Source: a virus (Duplodnaviria > Heunggongvirae > Uroviricota > Caudoviricetes). From it: DNA of 49,370 bases. Location: the IMG/VR virus record IMGVR_UViG_2522572023_000012. The stretch is one strand, 5' to 3'. The translations under genes were made by a program, and so were the position numbers. The notes below the pieces were generated by a model. That model did no database searches, was not told where the DNA came from, and saw nothing but the letters and a program-made list of their open reading frames with translations. This document shows positions 1,680 to 30,190 of this stretch, piece after piece (position 1 is the first letter of the stretch; each line of letters starts with the position of its first letter).

Positions 1680-3869
1680 TTGCTAATCCTTGCAGTTTTT
1701 GATTATAACATTTTTATTTGTTTATTAGGATTTTTGATGGAACTGTTACAGGAACACGGGGCGATACTTAAAGTTGTAATCATGCCTACTACTGGGGAAC
1801 AAACCATAATCCAAGGTTTCGATACTGGCCTCCTCAACCCAGAGATATCCAACATTCTTTTTTTATTGGCCAAAACACCAAAAGAAATTAGTGAGATTTT
1901 TGTCAATGAAAATGATAACTTTCAGCCTACTCTAAGCGGGCTAAATCCTATTTTTTTAATATCTAAAGAAAATCTTGAAAAAATACCAAATATTTATCAA
2001 ACGCCATTTTGCTTAATTTTTTGTGCTAAAGAAGATTTTTCGTATGTTTGTGCTTTAAAAAAACATTTTGCTATACCACCTATAATTTGTTGCAATTCTA
2101 AACGCGCTGATCTACCACTTAATAAGATTAATAGTATATACTCATTTGATAAGGTGCTCTTCTCTCGGTTGAAATTCATTGAGGATAAAATAAGAAAAAA
2201 TCACAGTGAAAAGAAAATATCAACGAAGTTGAAGCGAAGAGGGGCTTTATTTAATAAATCACCTTGGAGATCGACGCTTAACAATTCAACACTACCCAAT
2301 GAGTTGTTAATTGAATCACTTGGCTATATGCTATCTCCACCAAAAAGAATTAAAGATGGTAGTAGCAAAAGAGAGTTTATAGAAATAATACTTCATAGCG
2401 TTGATGCATACACCGAATGTTTAAAGGAATTAGATATACCACTTCCAACGGAAGTCTTACTTTTTGCTCCGGGTATGCACTCTTTTTTATATGATAAAAA
2501 TAATGACTTTTATGAGTTAATAACGGAAAATTTATCCACAATTGAGAAAAAATTCCTTATTGATGGAGTGTTGAGGAATCCTGGCTATTCTGGAATTAGA
2601 CTTGATATAAATTCAGATAGAAAAGAACTTTTTAAAAGTCCTGCTTTCCGTTACCTCACCTCACTAAGACGCGCTGAAATGCGATTAACAACAGCTGCGA
2701 TTACTTTATTTAGCATAAATAAAAAAATCCCAGCAATAAGATTGCCAAATGCAATAAATCATTACTCCAATTATTTGAAAAATCTTGAAGATCTTGCAAC
2801 TTCTTCTGGGATAAATAGTGAAGCATTCATCACTAAATCTAAAGCATTCAATACTGTTATTCGAAGAGCCCTTGGTTGCAAGTTGAGAACATATATAAGT
2901 AAAAACTATAGCGATTTGTCCTTTGTTTGTGATGTACCATTGGATTGGATTAGGTTTAATAACATACCTATAATGTTCAGTCATGAGATATCAAGAATAA
3001 ATGCTACGCCTGGTAACGTTCTTCTACAGAGCGCCTCTGCTTTTCCGCGCGTTTTAGTAAAAGCATCTGAGTTGAGAAAGGTTTTAGTTATACGTTCTTT
3101 TGAGCCTGATGATCACTTAAAGTTCATATTAGAGAACGCAATTGAGATATTTAAAAAACAGATGCCAGATCTTGATTGCGAGATTATTGATGTTAGATCG
3201 AAAGCTGAGTTTATTGATGCTCTAAATCAATATCAAGGTCATATTCTTGTTATGGATTGTCATGGAAACCATGATGGCAATGGGAGTCATGGATGGTTAA
3301 TAATAGGTGAGGATAAAGTGGACACTTGGAGTTTGAGAAAAATAGCAAGAATTCCTCCTATCGTAATTCTGAGTGCATGTTTAACATCTGCCCTAAGCGG
3401 TTCTCATGCCTCTGTTGCTAATGGCTTCGTTATAAGTGGTGCATTAAGTGTCATCGGAACATTACTGCCAGTAAATGCGATAGACTCTGCTGTGTTTGTA
3501 AGTCGGTTGATCTACCGGTTTTACGAGTTTCCTTCGACGCTATCTACAAATTTTACACATGTTAATGTAAGGCTTTTTCTTTCTGTTTTTCTTAGGATGT
3601 CCTATGCAAGCGATTTAATAAGAGGATTTTTATCTGAAGATTTGATACCGAATAACTCATGGAAGAAAGATGCAGTTGATATTAACATGTATATAAACAT
3701 GCTTCACCATGATTGGTATGATTATGTAATTAACAAATTGACGATGTTAACGGGGCTCACGAAAAAAGATGTACTTGATTTTATCGATAGAAAATTATTC
3801 ATAACCGAAACTATGTGCTATAGCCAAATTGGATTTCCAGATGCAATCACAATTAGTCTTAAAGATTGA
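1680..3869 (+). CDS. Large CHAT-domain (caspase-like protease) protein with uncharacterised N-terminal region; candidate defence/abortive-infection effector. True start may be internal (about 1737 MELLQEHG or 1785 MPTTGEQ)
   Basis: Uninterrupted 729-codon frame in a strongly AT-rich islet. C-terminal region shows a caspase/CHAT-like dyad: beta-strand ILVMDCHGNH (His-Gly), then about 40 aa later IVILSAC (Cys), followed by a Gly-rich hydrophobic stretch. Confidence 0.6.
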   Translation: MLILAVFDYNIFICLLGFLMELLQEHGAILKVVIMPTTGEQTIIQGFDTGLLNPEISNILFLLAKTPKEISEIFVNENDNFQPTLSGLNPIFLISKENLEKIPNIYQTPFCLIFCAKEDFSYVCALKKHFAIPPIICCNSKRADLPLNKINSIYSFDKVLFSRLKFIEDKIRKNHSEKKISTKLKRRGALFNKSPWRSTLNNSTLPNELLIESLGYMLSPPKRIKDGSSKREFIEIILHSVDAYTECLKELDIPLPTEVLLFAPGMHSFLYDKNNDFYELITENLSTIEKKFLIDGVLRNPGYSGIRLDINSDRKELFKSPAFRYLTSLRRAEMRLTTAAITLFSINKKIPAIRLPNAINHYSNYLKNLEDLATSSGINSEAFITKSKAFNTVIRRALGCKLRTYISKNYSDLSFVCDVPLDWIRFNNIPIMFSHEISRINATPGNVLLQSASAFPRVLVKASELRKVLVIRSFEPDDHLKFILENAIEIFKKQMPDLDCEIIDVRSKAEFIDALNQYQGHILVMDCHGNHDGNGSHGWLIIGEDKVDTWSLRKIARIPPIVILSACLTSALSGSHASVANGFVISGALSVIGTLLPVNAIDSAVFVSRLIYRFYEFPSTLSTNFTHVNVRLFLSVFLRMSYASDLIRGFLSEDLIPNNSWKKDAVDINMYINMLHHDWYDYVINKLTMLTGLTKKDVLDFIDRKLFITETMCYSQIGFPDAITISLKD

Positions 3870-6697: not shown

Positions 6698-7060
6698 TTA
6701 ATGACCTGCTGCGCGGAGTTTTCCGTCAGGATCACCGGCAAGAGTCAGTAATTGTCCCTGGTCTTCCTGCAGAATAGTCAGGCGACCACCGCGATTGACA
6801 TACATCGGCGTTTCGGTGGTGTCTTCTTCGGAAATTTTCCCGCGGTTAGTCGGGCGAACATATGAGAGTTTGTGTTTGATTTTCACACGGTTCTCATCAA
6901 ACGGTTCGATTTCCAGGTTGAGCGAGACCTTACCTTTGGTTTTCGTGTTCATCACACCGGAAGCGACTTCACTGAGAACTGCGCCGATTTTGGTTTCAAA
7001 TACGCCGCCGTCCAGCTCCCCAATAAATGCCTGCACATCAGTACTGCGTTCGCTAGCCAT
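6698..7060 (-). CDS. Hypothetical early phage protein (about 120 aa); start approximate
   Basis: The ORF track extends to 7378, but the N-terminal 106 aa are Arg/Cys-rich GC-noise; a plausible start is MASERSTDVQAF near 7060. Confidence 0.5.
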   Translation of the reverse strand: MASERSTDVQAFIGELDGGVFETKIGAVLSEVASGVMNTKTKGKVSLNLEIEPFDENRVKIKHKLSYVRPTNRGKISEEDTTETPMYVNRGGRLTILQEDQGQLLTLAGDPDGKLRAAGH

Positions 7061-7528
7061 TTTGCTGCTCCTCATCATATCGACCCTGCAAGGTCGGTTG
7101 GTTTCTCCACAAAACAGAGAAGAACACCTGCGGTGGCAGCCGCCCGGATGGATTGGGTTATGAGCCCGTCGTCCGGTGATGCTCTTCTCTGTTTTGTAAA
7201 AAGGACGGTACCAGCCGGAAGCAAGGGTACAAACTGGTACCGCCAGGACTACACACAGCATAAAGTTGTGGTGCCGGGTGCCTCCCGGTGCCTGGCGAAG
7301 GTTGCACACCAGACGGGTGGGTATACACAGAAGGTCGACTGTCAGCCTCAACCTTAACCCGCGTGCACTGAGCCGCATTCACCACAACGCTAAGAATTCT
7401 CTCTGGTTGAAAATACTTAGCTGTTATGTGCCTGCTTTTAGCCACATCAGGCGAGGTGGACCTGGTTATTCCCCAACAACAAGGATTCGGTTAATCTGGT
7501 TATCCCCAACAACGCAAAAGGAAAAGAA

Positions 7529-7945
7529 ATGTCCGGTAATATCTATACGCTGTACAAATCCCACTGTGAAAATGTTGGAAAGTATCGGGGCATTGAAATC
7601 AGTGGGGTAGTGTCATCAGTCGAAATAAGCAAAGTTGAATCAATGGCAACATTACTTACTCTTCTGGATCTTGTCTTACATGAGCACCGGAAGAAATTCG
7701 GCACTCCCTATAATCAGTTGAATGGGAAAAAGGCTCTGGTTCACCTTATTCTGATGAAGCATCACTGGATGCCAAAACAGATTAATGAGATGAAATTTGA
7801 TGAACTTCTTCTTTCAATTCAGGATGAACTCACGCTTGATAAAATAAGCGTAACCGCCCAGAAATTTTTAGATTATCGAGACTGGAGATCACAAATTCAT
7901 CACTTTGAACCGCCCCGGGTTTCCTGGAGAGTGTTTTATCTGTGA
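7529..7945 (+). pseudogene. Hypothetical low-GC ORF whose 3' end runs into the IS629-like terminal repeat (C-terminally truncated or fused by the IS insertion)
   Basis: 138-aa ORF; its last about 13 codons are encoded by the IS terminal inverted repeat starting at 7906. Confidence 0.4.
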
Positions 7946-7947
7946 AC

Positions 7948-8838
7948 TCAGGCTGCCAGATCATCGTTTCCGATGGAAGCATAATAAGCTTTTTCTGCTT
8001 CTGCCGGAGGAGTATGGCCCAGCCTTTCCAGCAATCGTCGATTGTTATACCAGTCCACCCACGTGAGTGTGGCCAGTTCCACTTCTGCACGGTTTTTCCA
8101 GCTCTTACGGTGTATTACCTCCGCTTTGTAAAGACCATTGATGCTCTCCGCCATCGCGTTGTCATACGAGTCGCCTGTACTTCCTGTTGATGCCAGTAAT
8201 CCGGCTTCCTTAAGCCGCTGTGTGTAGGCCAGCGATACATACTGAGAACCTTTATCACTGTGATGGAGCGTGCCGGACGGTCGACGGGCCCATAACGCCT
8301 GCTCCAGTGCATCCAGCACGAATGTCGTCTCCATGGACGATGAGACCCGCCACCCCACAATGTATCCGGCAAACACATCAATGATGAACGCCACATAGAC
8401 GAAGCCCTGCCATGTGCTGACGTAAGTAAAATCAGCCACCCACAGCTGGTCAGGTCGTTCTGCCACGAACTGACGGTTTACGCGGTCGCCTGCGGCAACG
8501 GCTTTCCGGCTGATGGTCGTACGGACCTTTTTACCCCGGAGAACACCGGCAAGTCCCATAACCGCCATGAGACGTGCCACAGTGCATCTGGCCACTCTGA
8601 TACCTTCCCGTAACAACTGACGCCAGACTTTACGCACACCGTATACCTTGTGATTTTCATCGTATACGCGCTGTATCTCTTTCTTCAGCCAGTCATCGCG
8701 CTGCGCACGGGCACTGCGTTTATCCGGATGATGTCGCTGTTGCTGACAGTGGTAATACGTTGACGGGGCAATATGCAGTTCGCTGCATAGCGGTCCGACC
8801 CCGTACTGCTCACGCAGCTTATCCAGCAGTGGCATCAT
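7948..8838 (-). CDS. IS3-family transposase OrfB (IS629-like)
   Basis: 296 aa with DDE-integrase character (LWVADFTYV...HSDKGSQY...DNAMAES). Confidence 0.9.
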   Translation of the reverse strand: MMPLLDKLREQYGVGPLCSELHIAPSTYYHCQQQRHHPDKRSARAQRDDWLKKEIQRVYDENHKVYGVRKVWRQLLREGIRVARCTVARLMAVMGLAGVLRGKKVRTTISRKAVAAGDRVNRQFVAERPDQLWVADFTYVSTWQGFVYVAFIIDVFAGYIVGWRVSSSMETTFVLDALEQALWARRPSGTLHHSDKGSQYVSLAYTQRLKEAGLLASTGSTGDSYDNAMAESINGLYKAEVIHRKSWKNRAEVELATLTWVDWYNNRRLLERLGHTPPAEAEKAYYASIGNDDLAA

Positions 8839-9076
8839 TTTTTCCAGAGGCGGTCGAACTCCGCCTTCGCAAAATAAGCGGAAGCCTGGCGAAGGATATC
8901 GTTACTGCGGCGCAGTTCACGATTTTCACGCTCCAGCTCTTTCAGACGCTGACGTTCAGCGGTGGTGAGCCCTCCATCACCGCCCCCGGTATCCCGCTCA
9001 TGCTGGCGAACCCAGACACGCAGAGTCTCCGGCGTACAGCCAATCTTTGGAGCAATGGAACAAATTGTCGCCCATT
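8835..9076 (-). pseudogene. IS3-family transposase OrfA, N-terminally truncated remnant
   Basis: Frame reads ...QWATICSIAPKIGCTPETLRVWVRQHERDTGGGDGGLTTAERQRLKELERENRELRRSNDILRQASAYFAKAEFDRLWKK* with no start codon; upstream sequence diverges. Confidence 0.6.
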
Positions 9077-9116
9077 GTGGTTCACTTTGATGATTTTGAC
9101 GAAAATGAATGGGATC

Positions 9117-9338
9117 CTAATTTGTCTGCACAATATCTAAAGTAGCATCCTGTGATAAAACCATGATTTCCTGATCCAGTTTTTTTAAGGAGTCTATTGT
9201 TTCCTGTCGATAAGACAGCAATTCACGAAGCTGGTTTATAGCTGCCAGCTTCTTTGTCATCCACTCGTAAATTTCCTCATCTGTGTAGCCAGGCGCGACG
9301 ATTTTTGGTTCTGTTTTGTGCATTTCACATCTCCTCAA
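9117..9338 (-). CDS. Hypothetical small protein between the IS remnant and cI
   Basis: 73-aa ORF with coiled-coil-like composition; position corresponds to the moron slot left of cI in lambdoid phages. Confidence 0.35.
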   Translation of the reverse strand: MRRCEMHKTEPKIVAPGYTDEEIYEWMTKKLAAINQLRELLSYRQETIDSLKKLDQEIMVLSQDATLDIVQTN

Positions 9339-9384
9339 GTTATCAGTTACTTGTTGATGGGGACCAGATTGTTAAAGAGCTAAG

Positions 9385-9410
9385 CGTCCTGTAGGGCGCT
9401 TTTTTGTTGC
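9385..9410 (+). terminator. Possible rho-independent terminator (hairpin gcgtcctgtagggcgc + T6)
   Basis: 6-bp stem (one G-U pair), 4-nt loop, followed by TTTTTT on the + strand. Confidence 0.3.
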
Positions 9411-9570
9411 TAACGAATCATCCTGGACTTCATATGCCCCTGGCGGCTACTTCGTGGGCGTCCTGCCTGTTCGTTATCTTTGATATAAAATCTAACTTAA
9501 CTTAGTTATTATGGCAAGAGAAAACACCAAACTTTTCTTAGTTCGGTGCCTTAGTTAGAGAAGAGAGGTC

Positions 9571-10197
9571 TTAGAGTTCGTATTGAACTCCTTTGACTAC
9601 ACCAATGATAAGGCAATTACCATTGATAGGGATGTTGGGATACCGAGGATTTAATGGCACTAAAAACTTTTGAGGGCCATCGATGACTAATTTTTTTACT
9701 GTAGCTTCGTTTGTTCCATCAAGTCGAGCGATGACTATTTTTCCATGACGAGGTTCTGCATCTGGATCTACAATCACTGTTGCGCCTTCTGGTATTGTTG
9801 GGAGGCCATTAGGGTTAGTCATGGAGTCACCTTTAACCTCTAATGCAAATGAGTTATCACCAATCTTTAATGATGTATCTACCCACTTGTCCACTTCACT
9901 AAACACTTCTGCTGCCCTGCACTCAGTAAACTGCCCAGCCTGAACCCACGATATTACAGGAACTCTGCGCATGTTTGTGACGAGTTTGCCTTCAAACTCA
10001 GCACCATAAAGAATGTAATCTATTGACGTATTGAAGAACTTCGCTAATTTCGAAAGTGCCTCCCCACCAGGGGTATTGATGTCTTTCTCCCAGTACCCCA
10101 CAGCAACGTCGCTTACTCCACAAAATTTACCCAATTCTTTCTGGGACGTTCCGGTAACTCTTCTCAGAGCTTTTATACGCTGACCAACCGTTTCCAT
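9571..10197 (-). CDS. cI: CI-like prophage repressor (HTH + S24 LexA-like peptidase domain)
   Basis: N-terminal HTH (QKELGKFCGVSDVAVGYWE); C-terminal S24 motifs (GDSM ... KIVIARLDG...TVKKL); divergent from cro. Confidence 0.9.
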   Translation of the reverse strand: METVGQRIKALRRVTGTSQKELGKFCGVSDVAVGYWEKDINTPGGEALSKLAKFFNTSIDYILYGAEFEGKLVTNMRRVPVISWVQAGQFTECRAAEVFSEVDKWVDTSLKIGDNSFALEVKGDSMTNPNGLPTIPEGATVIVDPDAEPRHGKIVIARLDGTNEATVKKLVIDGPQKFLVPLNPRYPNIPINGNCLIIGVVKGVQYEL

Positions 10198-16772: not shown

Positions 16773-17072
16773 AAAAATTCCTTAATACTGATAACTGGGC
16801 GCACTATACACACGTTCCTGAAGAAAGCTATAGTTTTTTGATGGGGTTGAAGATGGCTGGATGTCTAAAATAAACATTGCTTCATATGTTCAACTATGCG
16901 TTAATGATTGCGTCGGTTTGAAGAACAGACGATATACGAAGTAGTTTACTAAAGCAGTTCTCATTTCAGGTGTTATTCACTTATTCCTTCTTTGAGTCTC
17001 TCCAATTAAGTACGAAGTCGTTTCTGTTATACAAGCCATTTATGCCGAAAGGCTCAAGTTAAGGAATGTAGA

Positions 17073-17288
17073 ATGTCAAATAAAATGACTGGTTTAGTAA
17101 AATGGTTTAACGCTGATAAAGGTTTTGGCTTTATTTCTCCTGTTGATGGTAGTAAAGATGTGTTTGTGCATTTTTCTGCGATTCAGAATGATAATTTTCG
17201 AACCTTATTTGAAGGTCAAAAGGTTACCTTCTCTGTAGAGAGTGGTGCTAAAGGTCCTGCAGCAGCAAATGTCATAATTACTGATTAA
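17073..17288 (+). CDS. cspB: Cold-shock protein CspB
   Basis: [23 protein letters not shown]...[12 protein letters not shown]; near-identical to CspB as recalled. Confidence 0.9.
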
Positions 17289-17569
17289 AATTCATAGTTT
17301 GTCTGTATACGATAACGAAGAAGGCTGATGCCTGAGTGGAGATACAGACAGAGTGGTGAATATTGGATCTCTTTAATAAATAGTAAGGAGGTCCAATACA
17401 TGAAACAATGGCCAGCATATTTGGCAATAACTTAATCAGGAAAAGTATGCTAACCATTGTGGTGAAGTGCAGGTTTGCTGCATGAATAGTTTTACAGCAG
17501 AAGCTAACTGCTGGCATAGCAAAACAAAGTGCGTAAGTGGATGACTCCCACAAAAAGTACCACAATATT

Positions 17570-20161: not shown

Positions 20162-20524
20162 ATTAATATTAAATCGGATTATTTTTAGCGCTGAATGTGA
20201 AATTTAAATAAAAAGGACTCTTCCATGAGTCAAAATCCTTGAAATCTTAAGGGTAAGATAAAAGGTCATTAGACAGAATGACACGTTTTATTAATAAATA
20301 AAGCTATTGTTTCATTCGTGTGTTTTTCTTTACAAAAGTAATCCTTGCTATGGTTGGTTAATCATGCGTTAATGGTGTTCTGGTTTGTTACAAAATTATC
20401 TGAAGCAGTCATTGTTATAATTTTATTATTTGTACCTCTTGAGATTTCCTTGTTGGTTTTTCTCTCTGATATTTTTTTTCGGACCATTCTGCCCAAGGGC
20501 TAACTTCTTCAAAAGGTAATAATG

Positions 20525-20737
20525 ATGTCTAACAAAATGACTGGTTTAGTGAAATGGTTTAACCCTGAAAAAGGTTTTGGTTTCATCACGCCGAAAGATG
20601 GTAGCAAAGATGTGTTTGTCCATTTCTCAGCTATTCAGAGCAACGATTTCAAAACGTTAACTGAGAATCAGGAAGTCGAATTTGGTATTGAGAACGGACC
20701 TAAAGGCCCCGCGGCTGTTCATGTAGTGGCACTTTGA
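20525..20737 (+). CDS. cspI: Cold-shock protein CspI
   Basis: [45 protein letters not shown]...AAVHVVAL. Confidence 0.9.
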
Positions 20738-21008
20738 GGTAGAAAATATTACAAACCATATTCACTTTAGATGCCCGTGTTGCCATGGTTCGCAGTATAG
20801 AATATCATCTTTTGATGTTTCTGACAGGAATCCTTTCGGGGCAAAATGTATCTTTTGTAAATCAATGATGATTACATTTGATAATATTTCACAATACTTA
20901 AATGTTAGCCGTCTGTCGTTAGATTTAAGAAAGTGAAAATGAAGGCTCCTTCGGGAGCTTTTTTGCTTAGTGTCTAGTCGATGGATACTCACATATTACG
21001 GTAACATT

Positions 21009-23131: not shown

Positions 23132-25233
23132 TGCTGAATCAGGAAACCGCAAAGGCAGCACGAACCGATTCAGGTTATATCCTTCGCGCACCGAGACGAA
23201 TGCGGGTTGCTGATGCCGTTGCTCAGTATATGCGGGTGCCCATGGGGGCCGGGAACTCAGTCCCGTGGGATCCGCTGGTGGCACCGTATGTTATTGAGCC
23301 GATGAACTGCCTGGCCTCGCGTGAATACGACGCAGTGATATTTGTTGGCCCGGCACGAACTGGCAAGACTATCGGCCTGATTGACGGCTGGGTGATTTAC
23401 AACGTGATTTGCGATCCTGCTGATATGCTGATCATTCAGATGACGGAGGAAAAAGCCCGCGAACACTCCAAAAAACGACTTGCCAGAACGTTTCGCGTCA
23501 GCCCGGAAGTGGTCAGTCGCCTGAGTCCGAACAAAAATGACAACAACGTTTATGACAGAACATTCCTTGCTGGCAACTACCTGAAAATCGGCTGGCCGTC
23601 AGTCAATATCATGTCCTCATCAGATTATAAATGCGTGGCGCTGACGGATTATGACCGTTTTCCGGAAGATATTGATGGCGAGGGGGATGCCTTCTCTCTT
23701 GCCTCAAAACGTACCACCACATTTATGTCCAGTGGTATGACGCTGGTGGAGAGTTCCCCCGGCAGGGATGTGAAGGATGTGAAATGGCGACGGACTTCAC
23801 CGCATGAGGCTCCACCAACCACGGGGATACTGTCGCTCTATAACCGTGGCGATCGCCGTCGCTGGTACTGGCCCTGTCCACACTGTGGTGAGTATTTTCA
23901 GCCCTGCGGCGATGTGGTTGCTGGTTTCCGTGATATTGCCGATCCCGTGCTGGCAAGTGAGGCGGCTTATATTCAGTGTCCTTCCTGTTCAGGACGGATT
24001 ATGCCTGAACAAAAACGTGAGCTGAACGGACGTGGGGTCTGGTTGCGGGATGGTGAATCCATCAATGCGGATGGCAGTCGTTATGGTGATCCCCGACGCT
24101 CACGTATTGCGTCATTCTGGATGGAGGGTCCGGCAGCTGCTTACCAGACACTCTCGCAACTCGTTTACAAACTGCTTGCTGCAGAACAGGAATACGAGAC
24201 AACCGGAAGTGAAGAAACACTCAAGACGGTTATCAATACCGACTGGGGATTACCTTATCTTCCCCGTGCCAGCATGGAGCAACGAAAAAGTGAACTGCTT
24301 GAGCAGCGGGCAGAGCCAGTTCCTTCCCGCAGTGTGCCGGATGGCGTTAATTTCCTGGTGGCGACAGTTGATGTGCAGGCGGGACGTCATCGCCGTTTTG
24401 TGGTTCAGGTAACGGGCTATGGCAGCCGTGGCGAACGCTGGATTATTGATCGTTACAACATCACGCAGTCATTGCGCGGTGACAGCGACGGGGAGAGCCA
24501 GCGAATTGATCCGGCCAGCTATCCGGAAGACTGGGATGTCCTGCTGACGGATGTTTTTCATAAAAGCTGGCCGCTGGCCTCCGATCCTTCTCAACAAATG
24601 CGACTGATGGCAATGGCGGTGGACTCCGGCGGTGAAGACGGAGTCACTGATAATGCCTATAAATTCTGGCGTCGTTGCCGTCGTGATGGCCTTGGTAAAC
24701 GTATTTACCTGTTTAAGGGCGACAGCATCCGGCGCGCAAAACTGATCACCCGTACATTCCCTGATAACACCGGACGAACGGGCCGACGGGCGCAGGCCGC
24801 AGGTGATGTACCGCTCTGGCTTCTTCAGACGGATGCCCTGAAAGACCGGGTGAATAACGCGTTATGGCGTGACTCGCCAGGTCCCGGCTATGTGCATTTC
24901 CCTGACTGGCTGGGGAGCTGGTTTTACGACGAACTGACGTATGAAGAGCGGAGCAGTGACGGGAAATGGAGTAAGCCGGGTCGCGGTGCCAACGAAGCTT
25001 TTGACCTGATGGTGTATGCCGAGGCTCTGGTCATTCTGCATGGATACGAAAAGATCCGCTGGCCGGATGCACCGGAGTGGGCGAGCCGGGAAACCTGGCT
25101 GGAGTGTGTCCCGGACAGTACCGAACCGTCACCCACACCGGAACCGGTATCCACGCCTGTTAAAAAACAAAAACGGAAGAAAACAGTAACTGACGATGTT
25201 AACCCCTGGCTGACTTCCGGAGGATGGTTATGA
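23131..25233 (+). CDS. Terminase large subunit (lambda GpA family)
   Basis: 700 aa; Walker A (VGPARTGKT) and a CPHCGE zinc-finger-like motif comparable to lambda gpA ACPHCGEE. Confidence 0.9.
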   Translation: MLNQETAKAARTDSGYILRAPRRMRVADAVAQYMRVPMGAGNSVPWDPLVAPYVIEPMNCLASREYDAVIFVGPARTGKTIGLIDGWVIYNVICDPADMLIIQMTEEKAREHSKKRLARTFRVSPEVVSRLSPNKNDNNVYDRTFLAGNYLKIGWPSVNIMSSSDYKCVALTDYDRFPEDIDGEGDAFSLASKRTTTFMSSGMTLVESSPGRDVKDVKWRRTSPHEAPPTTGILSLYNRGDRRRWYWPCPHCGEYFQPCGDVVAGFRDIADPVLASEAAYIQCPSCSGRIMPEQKRELNGRGVWLRDGESINADGSRYGDPRRSRIASFWMEGPAAAYQTLSQLVYKLLAAEQEYETTGSEETLKTVINTDWGLPYLPRASMEQRKSELLEQRAEPVPSRSVPDGVNFLVATVDVQAGRHRRFVVQVTGYGSRGERWIIDRYNITQSLRGDSDGESQRIDPASYPEDWDVLLTDVFHKSWPLASDPSQQMRLMAMAVDSGGEDGVTDNAYKFWRRCRRDGLGKRIYLFKGDSIRRAKLITRTFPDNTGRTGRRAQAAGDVPLWLLQTDALKDRVNNALWRDSPGPGYVHFPDWLGSWFYDELTYEERSSDGKWSKPGRGANEAFDLMVYAEALVILHGYEKIRWPDAPEWASRETWLECVPDSTEPSPTPEPVSTPVKKQKRKKTVTDDVNPWLTSGGWL

Positions 25234-29611: not shown

Positions 29612-30190
29612 ATGAAGGGGCTTGAGAATGCCATCCGCAATCTGAACAGCCTTGATACCCGTATGGTGCCACAGGCCAGCGCATGGGCGATAAACCGTGT
29701 GGCACAGAAAGCGGTCTCGGTTGCCACCCGGCAGGTTGCCGGGAATACCGTTGCGGGAGATAACCAGGTGAAAGGGATCCCCCTGAAACTGGTACGTCAG
29801 CGTGTCCGGGTGTTTAAAGCCAGTCCGTCAGGAAAAATGACGGCCAGGATCCGCGTTAACCGAGGCAATCTGCCCGCCATTAAGCTGGGGACAGCCCGGG
29901 TCAGACTGGCCCGGCGTGGTGGAAAACTGCAGTACCGTGGCAGTGTGCTGAAGGTGGGTAAATATCTTTTCCGGGATGCGTTTATTCAGCAACTGGCGAA
30001 TGGTCGCTGGCATGTGATGCGACGTATTGATGGCAAAAATCGTTACCCCATTGATGTGGTGAAAATCCCGCTGTCCGGACCGCTGACACAGGCATTTGAA
30101 GATGCCCGCGACCACATCATTGCTGCGGAAATGCCGAAACAGCTGGGGTATGCACTGAAACAACAACTGAGGTTATGGCTGACCCGATGA
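29612..30190 (+). CDS. Tail completion protein (lambda gpZ-like)
   Basis: 192 aa, immediately upstream of U, same length and position as lambda Z. Confidence 0.6.
   Translation: MKGLENAIRNLNSLDTRMVPQASAWAINRVAQKAVSVATRQVAGNTVAGDNQVKGIPLKLVRQRVRVFKASPSGKMTARIRVNRGNLPAIKLGTARVRLARRGGKLQYRGSVLKVGKYLFRDAFIQQLANGRWHVMRRIDGKNRYPIDVVKIPLSGPLTQAFEDARDHIIAAEMPKQLGYALKQQLRLWLTR

Follow-up and report, generated by a model that had tools for sequence, protein, structure and literature searches.

The rightward open reading frame (ORF) at 7529-7945 of the DNA analysed here (49,370 nucleotides, the window) probably marks the 'sieB slot' of a lambdoid, SfIV/CPS-53-like prophage, in which a sieB-type promoter/sas antisense module precedes an ECs1072-family cargo gene that has been broken by an insertion sequence (IS). 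The gene points against PL and has the first early-left gene, in the N position, on one side and the early genes of the yfdP side on the other. The direct repeats ahead of it, which the initial annotation proposed as regulator binding sites, are best read as two tandem units of a sieB-type promoter/leader whose reverse complement is a sas-type antisense RNA, each repeat forming a sas-type hairpin on the minus strand.

The prophage locus and its interrupted ECs1072-family gene

A prophage of E. coli O145:H28 RM12761 / RM13516 matches the window at 100% identity. It is collinear both with CPS-53-like prophages, which are integrated at tRNA-Thr, and with Shigella phage SfIV. As first annotated, the ORF runs against its surroundings: yfdR, yfdQ and yfdP on one side and the 68-aa gene and the LexA-type cI on the other are all encoded on the minus strand (Table 1). 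Its low GC content was likewise confirmed, at 39.0% in the native part (7529-7905) versus 49.6% in the window (68-aa gene, 40.1%; cI, 43%; yfdP/Q/R, 45-50%). An ECs1072-family gene is present in some related phages, and other ORFs replace it in PhiR29_1, SfV and mEp460. Presence and absence among related phages together with a deviant base composition (39% versus ~50% GC) are the marks of a moron in the Hendrix/Juhala sense, and the ORF is confirmed as a genuine accessory gene, conserved and low in GC, that reads rightward within an early operon reading leftward. The proposal of a moron with its own promoter thus stands in its first part, and the second is probable from homology to P22, as described below.

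Table 1. Features of the sieB-slot locus, in window coordinates
Feature	Position	Strand	Basis or remarks
yfdP	6698-7060	-	
STnc100-like sRNA region	7196-7418	-	directly follows the module on the minus strand; below Rfam gathering score
sas-like antisense RNA module, ~105 bp (predicted)	7422-7533	-	ends approximate, by alignment to P22 sas reads
Conserved 'left part'	7429-7459	-	terminal hairpin GCCUG/CAGGC; possible CCAC/GUGG pseudoknot arm
34-bp tandem duplication	7455-7488 + 7489-7522		contains both repeats; repeat search; period 33-34 bp in all related lineages
Predicted cargo promoter	7466-7503	+	by alignment to annotated P22 sieB promoter and RNA start
Predicted -35, TTATTC	7466-7471	+	inside copy 1
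Predicted -10, GTTAAT	7490-7495	+	spacer between copies
Predicted RNA start	~7503	+	start of CCCCAACAAC in copy 2
ECs1072-family ORF, 138 aa, IS-fused	7529-7945	+	ATG start; native codons to 7905; NF033230, phrog_5286
Target-site duplication CTT, 3 bp	7903-7905 (left), 9085-9087 (right)		
IS629 derivative, 1179 bp	7906-9084	-	ALIL pseudoknot 120 bits
Orphaned native 3' end, 18 codons + stop, DDFDENEWDPNLSAQYLK	9088-9145	+	contains Trp134
68-aa gene (phrog_1744)	9117-9323	-	first gene after inferred PL and boxA
Early-left control region (inferred)	9369-9517	-	PL, operators, hairpin and boxA read from sequence
rrn-like boxA, GCTCTTTAACAA	9380->9369	-	ahead of 68-aa gene
Hairpin in early-left control region	9400->9383	-	
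PL, TTGCCA-17-TAGATT (inferred)	9517->9489	-	among CTAAG..CTTAG operators
cI (LexA-type repressor)	9571-10197	-	

We place the 68-aa gene in the position of lambda N and P22 gene 24 because it is the first gene after the inferred PL and boxA. A possible terminator, a plus-strand hairpin with a T-run after it (~9383-9406), is at the same time part of the PL leader. On the other side of the slot, the Rfam STnc100 model is matched over its full length at 39.2 bits (E 5e-7; gathering score 47 not reached). Beyond this STnc100-like region lies a long hairpin, ahead of yfdP.

The product of the ORF, which PGAP names 'ECs1072 family phage-associated protein', scores 129.1 bits on NCBIfam NF033230 over residues 4-128 (curated cutoff 70), and the profile match ends at position 126 of 142. 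The intact homologues that the initial annotation advised seeking in related prophages were found and their slot neighbours compared. They are 144 aa long; the 144-aa form has 99% identity with proteins that are widespread in E. coli, Shigella and Salmonella, scores 157.8 bits on NF033230 and is matched end to end by phrog_5286. Alignment with IS-free loci (strain MSI001, phage SfIV) places an exact junction, with native DNA up to 7905 and the IS629 right end, TGAACCGCCCCGGG, from 7906. The earlier reading that the last codons come from an IS and that the C-terminus is lost therefore proved right: the IS629 right end supplies the last 12 codons and the stop, and native residues 127-144 (18 residues) are replaced.

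Among 57 aligned family members, Trp134, in the motif EW[D/N]P, is the sole invariant residue besides the initiator Met. Trp134 and the conserved C-terminal EW(D/N)P motif are absent from the window copy, which is therefore not a full-length member of NF033230, and an Arg conserved in close homologues is changed in it (R39M, 7643-7645). The copy is probably non-functional, since deletion of the Trp134 tail and R39M together make inactivity the most likely outcome.

The inserted element resembles IS629, of the IS3 family, in its orfA/orfB programmed frameshift, ALIL pseudoknot, intact right inverted repeat and 3-bp target duplication. It differs from a full copy (~1310 bp) by a 131-bp internal deletion in which all but 5 nt of the left inverted repeat (IRL) has been lost, together with the promoter and the opening ~25 codons of orfA, so that neither the paired terminal inverted repeats nor the complete orfA expected of the IS3 family is present. 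Because the deletion removes the IRL, the promoter and the orfA start, the element is probably immobile. In this window 1.18 kb of IS DNA separates PL from the module. In strain P0002, another IS629 lies 39 bp further 3' in the same gene.

The repeats and their homology to the sieB leader

The two near-identical repeats are present where they had been annotated (CTGGTTATTCCCCAACAAC at 7462-7480 and CTGGTTATCCCCAACAAC at 7496-7513), and each is part of a longer unit of 34 bp, present twice in tandem. With up to 3 mismatches allowed, 0.02 chance matches to the repeat pattern are expected per window.

In lambda, a module at 34,394-34,481 lies directly before sieB. The window module aligns to lambda 34,394-34,464 with 76% identity over 71 nt (blastn, E 2e-3), and homology is also found through an alignment of 19 diverse modules that includes intermediates. 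The same architecture was read directly in lambda, P22 and Rac. Map position and orientation agree as well. Gene maps show, in the window as in lambda, P22 and Rac, a rightward gene that stands against the PL operon and adjoins the first PL gene. Like the window gene, sieB of lambda, P22 (there with esc and sas) and Rac has the N-position gene to one side and the early-left genes of the ral/kil side to the other. In the Rac prophage of E. coli K-12 the order is kilR(-), sRNA KilS(-), sieB(+), ydaF(-), ydaG(-), racR(-), ydaS(+), and the DNA upstream of sieB is a module of the window's type (type B, below) with compensatory changes in its terminal stem (CCCGG/CCGGG).

For P22, the RefSeq record carries annotations for the sieB promoter (29690-29720) and for a 'sieB RNA start site' at 29727, which is the first base of the second repeat word. 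Like the window module, the sieB modules of P22, lambda and Rac have a repeated word in two copies that flank the -10, with the RNA start at the second copy. The resemblance ends at the cargo: the window ORF has no PF14163 match (lambda SieB, as a control, scores 103.5 bits), the repeated word is CCCCAACAAC in the window and ACCCCTACAG in the sieB system, and the window cargo copy, unlike those of the sieB system, is disrupted by an IS.

A small-RNA sequencing study of P22 infection (2026) reports 'P22A-sas', a 127-nt RNA of the minus strand (Table 2 in PMC13397905). This RNA matches the module over its full extent, in reverse complement: start codon, Shine-Dalgarno (SD) sequence, each of the two repeats (as CUGUAGGGGU) and left part all appear in it as complements. 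The sas RNA of P22 is a cis-antisense RNA that switches translation of sieB from SieB to Esc and so lets P22 escape its own exclusion (PMC12197685, PMC7067206, both citing Ranade & Poteete 1993). Read 5' to 3' on the minus strand, the window module has the complement of the start codon and SD, hairpin P1 (the complement of copy 2), the complement of the -10, hairpin P2 (the complement of copy 1) and a terminal hairpin.

The ORF probably has its own promoter, a prediction that follows from the homology of the upstream DNA to the mapped sieB promoter and RNA start of P22. Promoter prediction across the repeats, which the initial annotation recommended, was unproductive, in that a sigma-70 consensus scan of the window returned nothing on the plus strand; the candidate comes from the P22 alignment. 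Its hexamers, TTATTC and GTTAAT, are weak, and were unclear by eye until perfect TATAAT elements in other lineages and the P22 annotation emerged. From the predicted RNA start, a leader of ~25 nt with the SD sequence AAGGA leads to the ATG at 7529.

Every slot cargo sampled has the left part upstream, and in the sas-like RNA this part corresponds to the terminal hairpin. Readings of it as a leftward promoter, a DnaA box, a nut/put site or the spacer of a plus-strand promoter found no support.

Module architectures and RNA structure across phages

Many phage relatives found by megablast share DNA with the window only to 7459 or to 7513, which places mosaic junctions at the edges of the repeats. 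In a scan of IMG/VR for copy 1 plus the spacer, no fewer than 8 unrelated ORFs were found to begin at a constant distance (32-39 nt) beyond this sequence. They encode ECs1072, a 171-aa coiled-coil and zinc-ribbon protein (as in PhiR29_1), a Pro-rich peptide of 25-28 aa, and proteins of 78, 167, 176, 104 and 75 aa. We found no known function for any of these cargo ORFs, and PADLOC gave only weak matches for other slot cargo (E >= 0.002).

A second scan, for the left part alone (TGCCTG-N7-11-CCACNTCAGGC; window 7429-7459), found this element to be widespread and followed by one of two architectures. In type A, a TGGTATCCT-like sequence is succeeded by one covarying hairpin, which has the SD as its 3' arm, and the ATG follows. 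In type B, the architecture of the window, the hairpin containing copy 1 is followed by a -10-like element, copy 2, the SD and the ATG. The repeated word of type B varies by lineage, the two copies match each other, and the period of 33-34 bp is constant. At least 8 different words occur, each twice (CCCCAACAAC, ACCCCTACAG, CCCCAATGCAA, TTCCACAGTCAA, CCCCAACGT, CCCCCACAA, CCCCAACGAC, CCCCAACAGT). In most type-B lineages the best -10 lies between the copies, and in several it is a perfect TATAAT or TGnTATAAT. We counted ~33 cargo clusters among 281 modules sampled, in a sample biased by the search patterns and with a few heuristic ORF calls; SieB of lambda, P22 and Rac makes up one cluster. The module has no match in Rfam and lacks annotation in nearly all phage records examined, only the P22 RefSeq entry marking the sieB promoter and RNA start.

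Alternatively, the repeats might have no function of their own and represent either a neutral tandem duplication or a scar left by recombination where mosaic segments meet. The window does carry a plain 34-bp tandem unit, the mosaic junctions fall exactly at the duplication edges, and type A modules precede cargo ORFs without any duplication. At least 8 lineages nevertheless keep the two-copy form at an unchanged period, and their words differ from one lineage to the next but match within each. Such persistence requires selection or repeated conversion, and we regard a functionless duplication as quite improbable.

The promoter/leader and sas reading draws further support from the predicted structure of the minus-strand RNA. 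For the 19 diverse type-B modules aligned in the sas orientation, RNAalifold predicted hairpin P2 and the terminal hairpin, and we counted pairing over four helices (P1, P2, the terminal stem and the possible pseudoknot arm). In this alignment 86% of cells are paired, compared with 30-44% when the partners are slid by 1-3 columns, and compensatory changes occur in 41 cells, a number reached by none of 500 shuffles. Both sides have changed in 6 of the 9 pairs of P2, and 12 pairs across the structure carry double changes. P1 is just 66% paired, and the terminal stem is nearly invariant and so gives little covariation evidence. G.U pairs in the sas sense occur in 10 sequences at pair 75-84, in 10 at pair 38-46 and in 4-6 at pairs 69-91 and 70-90. 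The plus strand would have C.A mismatches at these places, which assigns the structure to the minus-strand RNA.

Each repeat corresponds to a small hairpin with a GGGG loop (GUUGU[UGGGG]AUAAC in the window; UGUA[GGGG]UACA for the P2 hairpin of P22, from copy 1). The sas-like RNA of the window folds no better than shuffles (z = +0.81; P22 sas, z = -1.79) and its P2 stem carries a mismatch, so the structural support comes from comparison and not from the window sequence by itself. Two broader measures bear on the strand of P2. In a broader set, the wobble pairs beside Watson-Crick cores of P2 show no strand bias (8 versus 10), and single-sequence energies favour the minus strand in 75 of 103 cases, a preference that may reflect G/U richness only. 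The strand of P2 is settled only by the counts in the 19-module alignment and by the P22 RNA reads.

This structure also bears on the earlier suggestion that the repeats are DNA sites, that is, operators or activator sites for a phage or host regulator of the rightward promoter. Direct repeats 33-34 bp apart that overlap the -35 and +1 of the inferred promoter would suit such sites, and the copies change together between lineages as sites for a co-evolving protein would. Each repeat is, however, a hairpin with compensatory changes and with G.U pairs on the minus strand only, the corresponding P22 region has been sequenced as a stable antisense RNA, and 15 lineages yielded neither a third site nor a co-varying candidate protein. 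Binding sites for a regulator are therefore an improbable account of the repeats. Prophage cI operators in particular are ruled out, since they have the form CTAAG-N4-CTTAG, unlike the repeats. A degenerate third copy on the minus strand (9353-9362), considered as a shared regulator site, has no equivalent in 15 other lineages and is for that reason probably a chance match.

Predicted control of the cargo and the convergent small gene

Homology to P22 suggests how a type-B module would act. In a lysogen the cargo would be transcribed from a weak sigma-70 promoter within the module, with its -35 in copy 1 and its -10 in the spacer, and the mRNA would start at repeat copy 2, ~25 nt before the ATG. 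In P22, sas may derive from processing of the PL transcript or from a promoter of its own. When PL fires, in lytic growth or from a superinfecting relative, leftward transcription across the window module would yield a sas-like antisense RNA, running from ~7533 to ~7422 on the minus strand. Its two G-loop hairpins (the repeat complements) and its 5' tail would pair with the C-rich 5' end and the SD of the cargo mRNA, and this pairing would shut off translation of the cargo. Given such shut-off whenever PL fires, the cargo would be made only in lysogeny.

Antisense recognition from a loop to an mRNA 5' end is found in the RNA-OUT/RNA-IN pair of IS10. By analogy, the antisense hairpin loop of the module (GGGG and its flanks) may be seen as complementary to the 5' end of its target mRNA (CCCC...), with the difference from IS10 that the complementarity here arises from a tandem duplication. 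The duplicated loop would allow the mRNA 5' end to pair with either the cis-complementary tail or the second hairpin loop. We put forward tentatively, as a rather doubtful extension, that the sieB/sas module is a portable 'lysogeny-only' expression head for a lambdoid-prophage hotspot whose small, mutually unrelated genes number in the dozens, in which the duplicated loop lets the antisense RNA grip the 5' end of any cargo mRNA a second time and ECs1072 is a new exclusion or abortive-infection effector. If this were true, the phage must silence the ECs1072 effector during its own lytic growth.

For the window, the result is mostly one of annotation, with an accessory gene that is probably inactive, an IS that is probably immobile, and repeats for which an antisense system of the 1993 era accounts. 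More widely, in many enterobacterial prophages the module marks a defined cargo slot adjoining the immunity region. Its recognition would put gene calls right (an 81-aa ORF missed in SfV, yfdP over-extended in SfIV and a 'frameshifted hypothetical' in this window) and would flag lysogeny-expressed genes, which are good exclusion or defence candidates. The module also offers a natural system in which to study antisense control independently of cargo identity. In the sources consulted, the 1993 primary papers aside, one module serving many unrelated cargo genes seems to be undescribed, as do a duplicated hairpin co-evolving with the mRNA 5' end and the ECs1072 family as module cargo, with its orphan fold.

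A profile search of 1.84 billion representative proteins returned only 76 relatives of ECs1072, all single-domain and ~145-155 aa long. AlphaFold2, using the 57-sequence alignment, gave a confident all-alpha model (pLDDT 93, pTM 0.87). The remote homology search that had been advised gave no lead: Foldseek found no match in PDB (both models) or BFVD (second model; best E ~1, TM ~0.2-0.3), a sequence profile search of PDB found none, and none of the 57 members matched Pfam. PADLOC 2.0 matched no defence model to ECs1072, the small gene or yfdP, and PHROGs names gave no function for ECs1072. The sole mention of ECs1072 that we found in the literature is one microarray table, in which its signal in a Sakai lysogen is 2.13-fold down at a growth transition (PMC2241611), indicating transcription in a lysogen. 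We infer, more weakly than the reading of the locus itself, a lysogeny-expressed exclusion or defence-type function for the ECs1072 protein.

The 68-aa gene converges on the intact ORF with a 29-nt overlap, and ECs1072 and this gene (9117-9323) might make up a dedicated system of two genes, such as an effector with an antidote for the lytic phase. In 4 of 5 distant contexts, a homologue of the small gene (17-37% identity) overlaps the ECs1072 relative at its 3' end, and 128 of the 130 co-occurrences in the fetched loci are convergent overlaps, most of these 130 loci being near-identical E. coli copies. Against an obligate pairing, 11 loci have the small gene beside other cargo or on the left side of the module and it is missing from 3 that carry an ECs1072 relative, and these occurrences of one partner alone weaken the idea of an obligate system. 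The small gene also holds the N / gene 24 position, so that adjacency may reflect the geometry of the slot. A dedicated pairing of the two genes is thus possible, and a two-gene system is on balance unlikely. The distant ECs1072 relatives are always in prophages, usually adjoining cI/cro and pointing against their neighbours. A related-locus search with a narrow ECs1072 alignment found one distant genome locus.

Small-RNA candidates and cargo genes at the sieB position

Directly after the sas-like module, the predicted antisense RNA upstream of the ORF, we find a region that resembles the STnc100 RNA along its full length (39.2 bits against a gathering score of 47, E 5e-7, Rfam). Rfam matches elsewhere in the window, to IS009 and to two cspA thermoregulator leaders, are at gathering level. 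A stem of ~25 bp at 7065-7195 lies between the STnc100-like region and yfdP. The "frameshifted hypothetical protein" is a PGAP call on this non-coding stretch, and yfdP in the SfIV record is stretched across the same non-coding region to 226 aa. The annotated KilS sRNA of the K-12 Rac prophage (locus L313, 5406-5503, minus strand) occupies the same relative place as the STnc100-like region, just leftward of the sieB/sas module. The slot, the sieB position of lambdoid prophages, may be regularly accompanied by processed early-left sRNAs.

Among the rightward genes that follow the module at this position, the only family besides SieB given a confident Pfam name is BssS (PF13991, E 6.5e-17), found in an IMG/VR contig (L271). 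The SfV record carries no annotation for its 81-aa rightward ORF, and what it labels a "putative rho-independent terminator" (25034-25066) is the same stretch as hairpin P2 of the sas-like module.

Features of the window and of the SfV locus
Feature	Position	Strand	Remark
81-aa ORF, phage SfV (U82619)	3119-3364 (locus L006)	+	after type-A module
STnc100-like RNA region	7196-7418	-	Rfam, full-length match below gathering score
IS629 copy, internally deleted	7906-9084	-	131 bp missing
Degenerate third copy of repeat word, CCCCATCAAC	9353-9362	-	in leader of 68-aa gene
boxA, rrn-type, GCTCTTTAACAA	9380->9369	-	hairpin precedes
Candidate PL, TTGCCA-17-TAGATT	9517->9489	-	among CTAAG..CTTAG operators
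cspA thermoregulator leader	16912-17351	+	Rfam, 156 bits
cspA thermoregulator leader	20367-20783	+	Rfam, 112 bits
IS009	47838-48036	+	Rfam, 221 bits

IS629 and sequence change in the ORF

The deletion in IS629 has taken away all but 5 nt of the left inverted repeat, together with the promoter and roughly the first 25 codons of orfA; a transposase is still annotated by PGAP, with its start, 9110, in flanking phage DNA. In another E. coli genome (protein P0002), an IS629 copy interrupts this gene 39 bp closer to its 3' end (…PNLSA|LNRPGFPGE…), and IS629 may target the 3' end of the ECs1072-family gene repeatedly. Within the ORF, AGG is changed to ATG at 7643-7645 (R39M). The arginine is conserved in close homologues, and its loss is consistent with decay after inactivation of the ORF, or may be a simple strain polymorphism.

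The candidate early-left control region

The third repeat copy in the leader of the 68-aa gene, degenerate in sequence and with AATCTGGT just upstream on the minus strand, is probably a chance occurrence, because no equivalent was found in 15 other lineages. CTAAG..CTTAG operators surround the candidate PL (region 9369-9560) and are also present between cI and cro. In this phage, which has no recognisable N, the boxA and its hairpin suggest an antitermination leader resembling that of nut or rrn.
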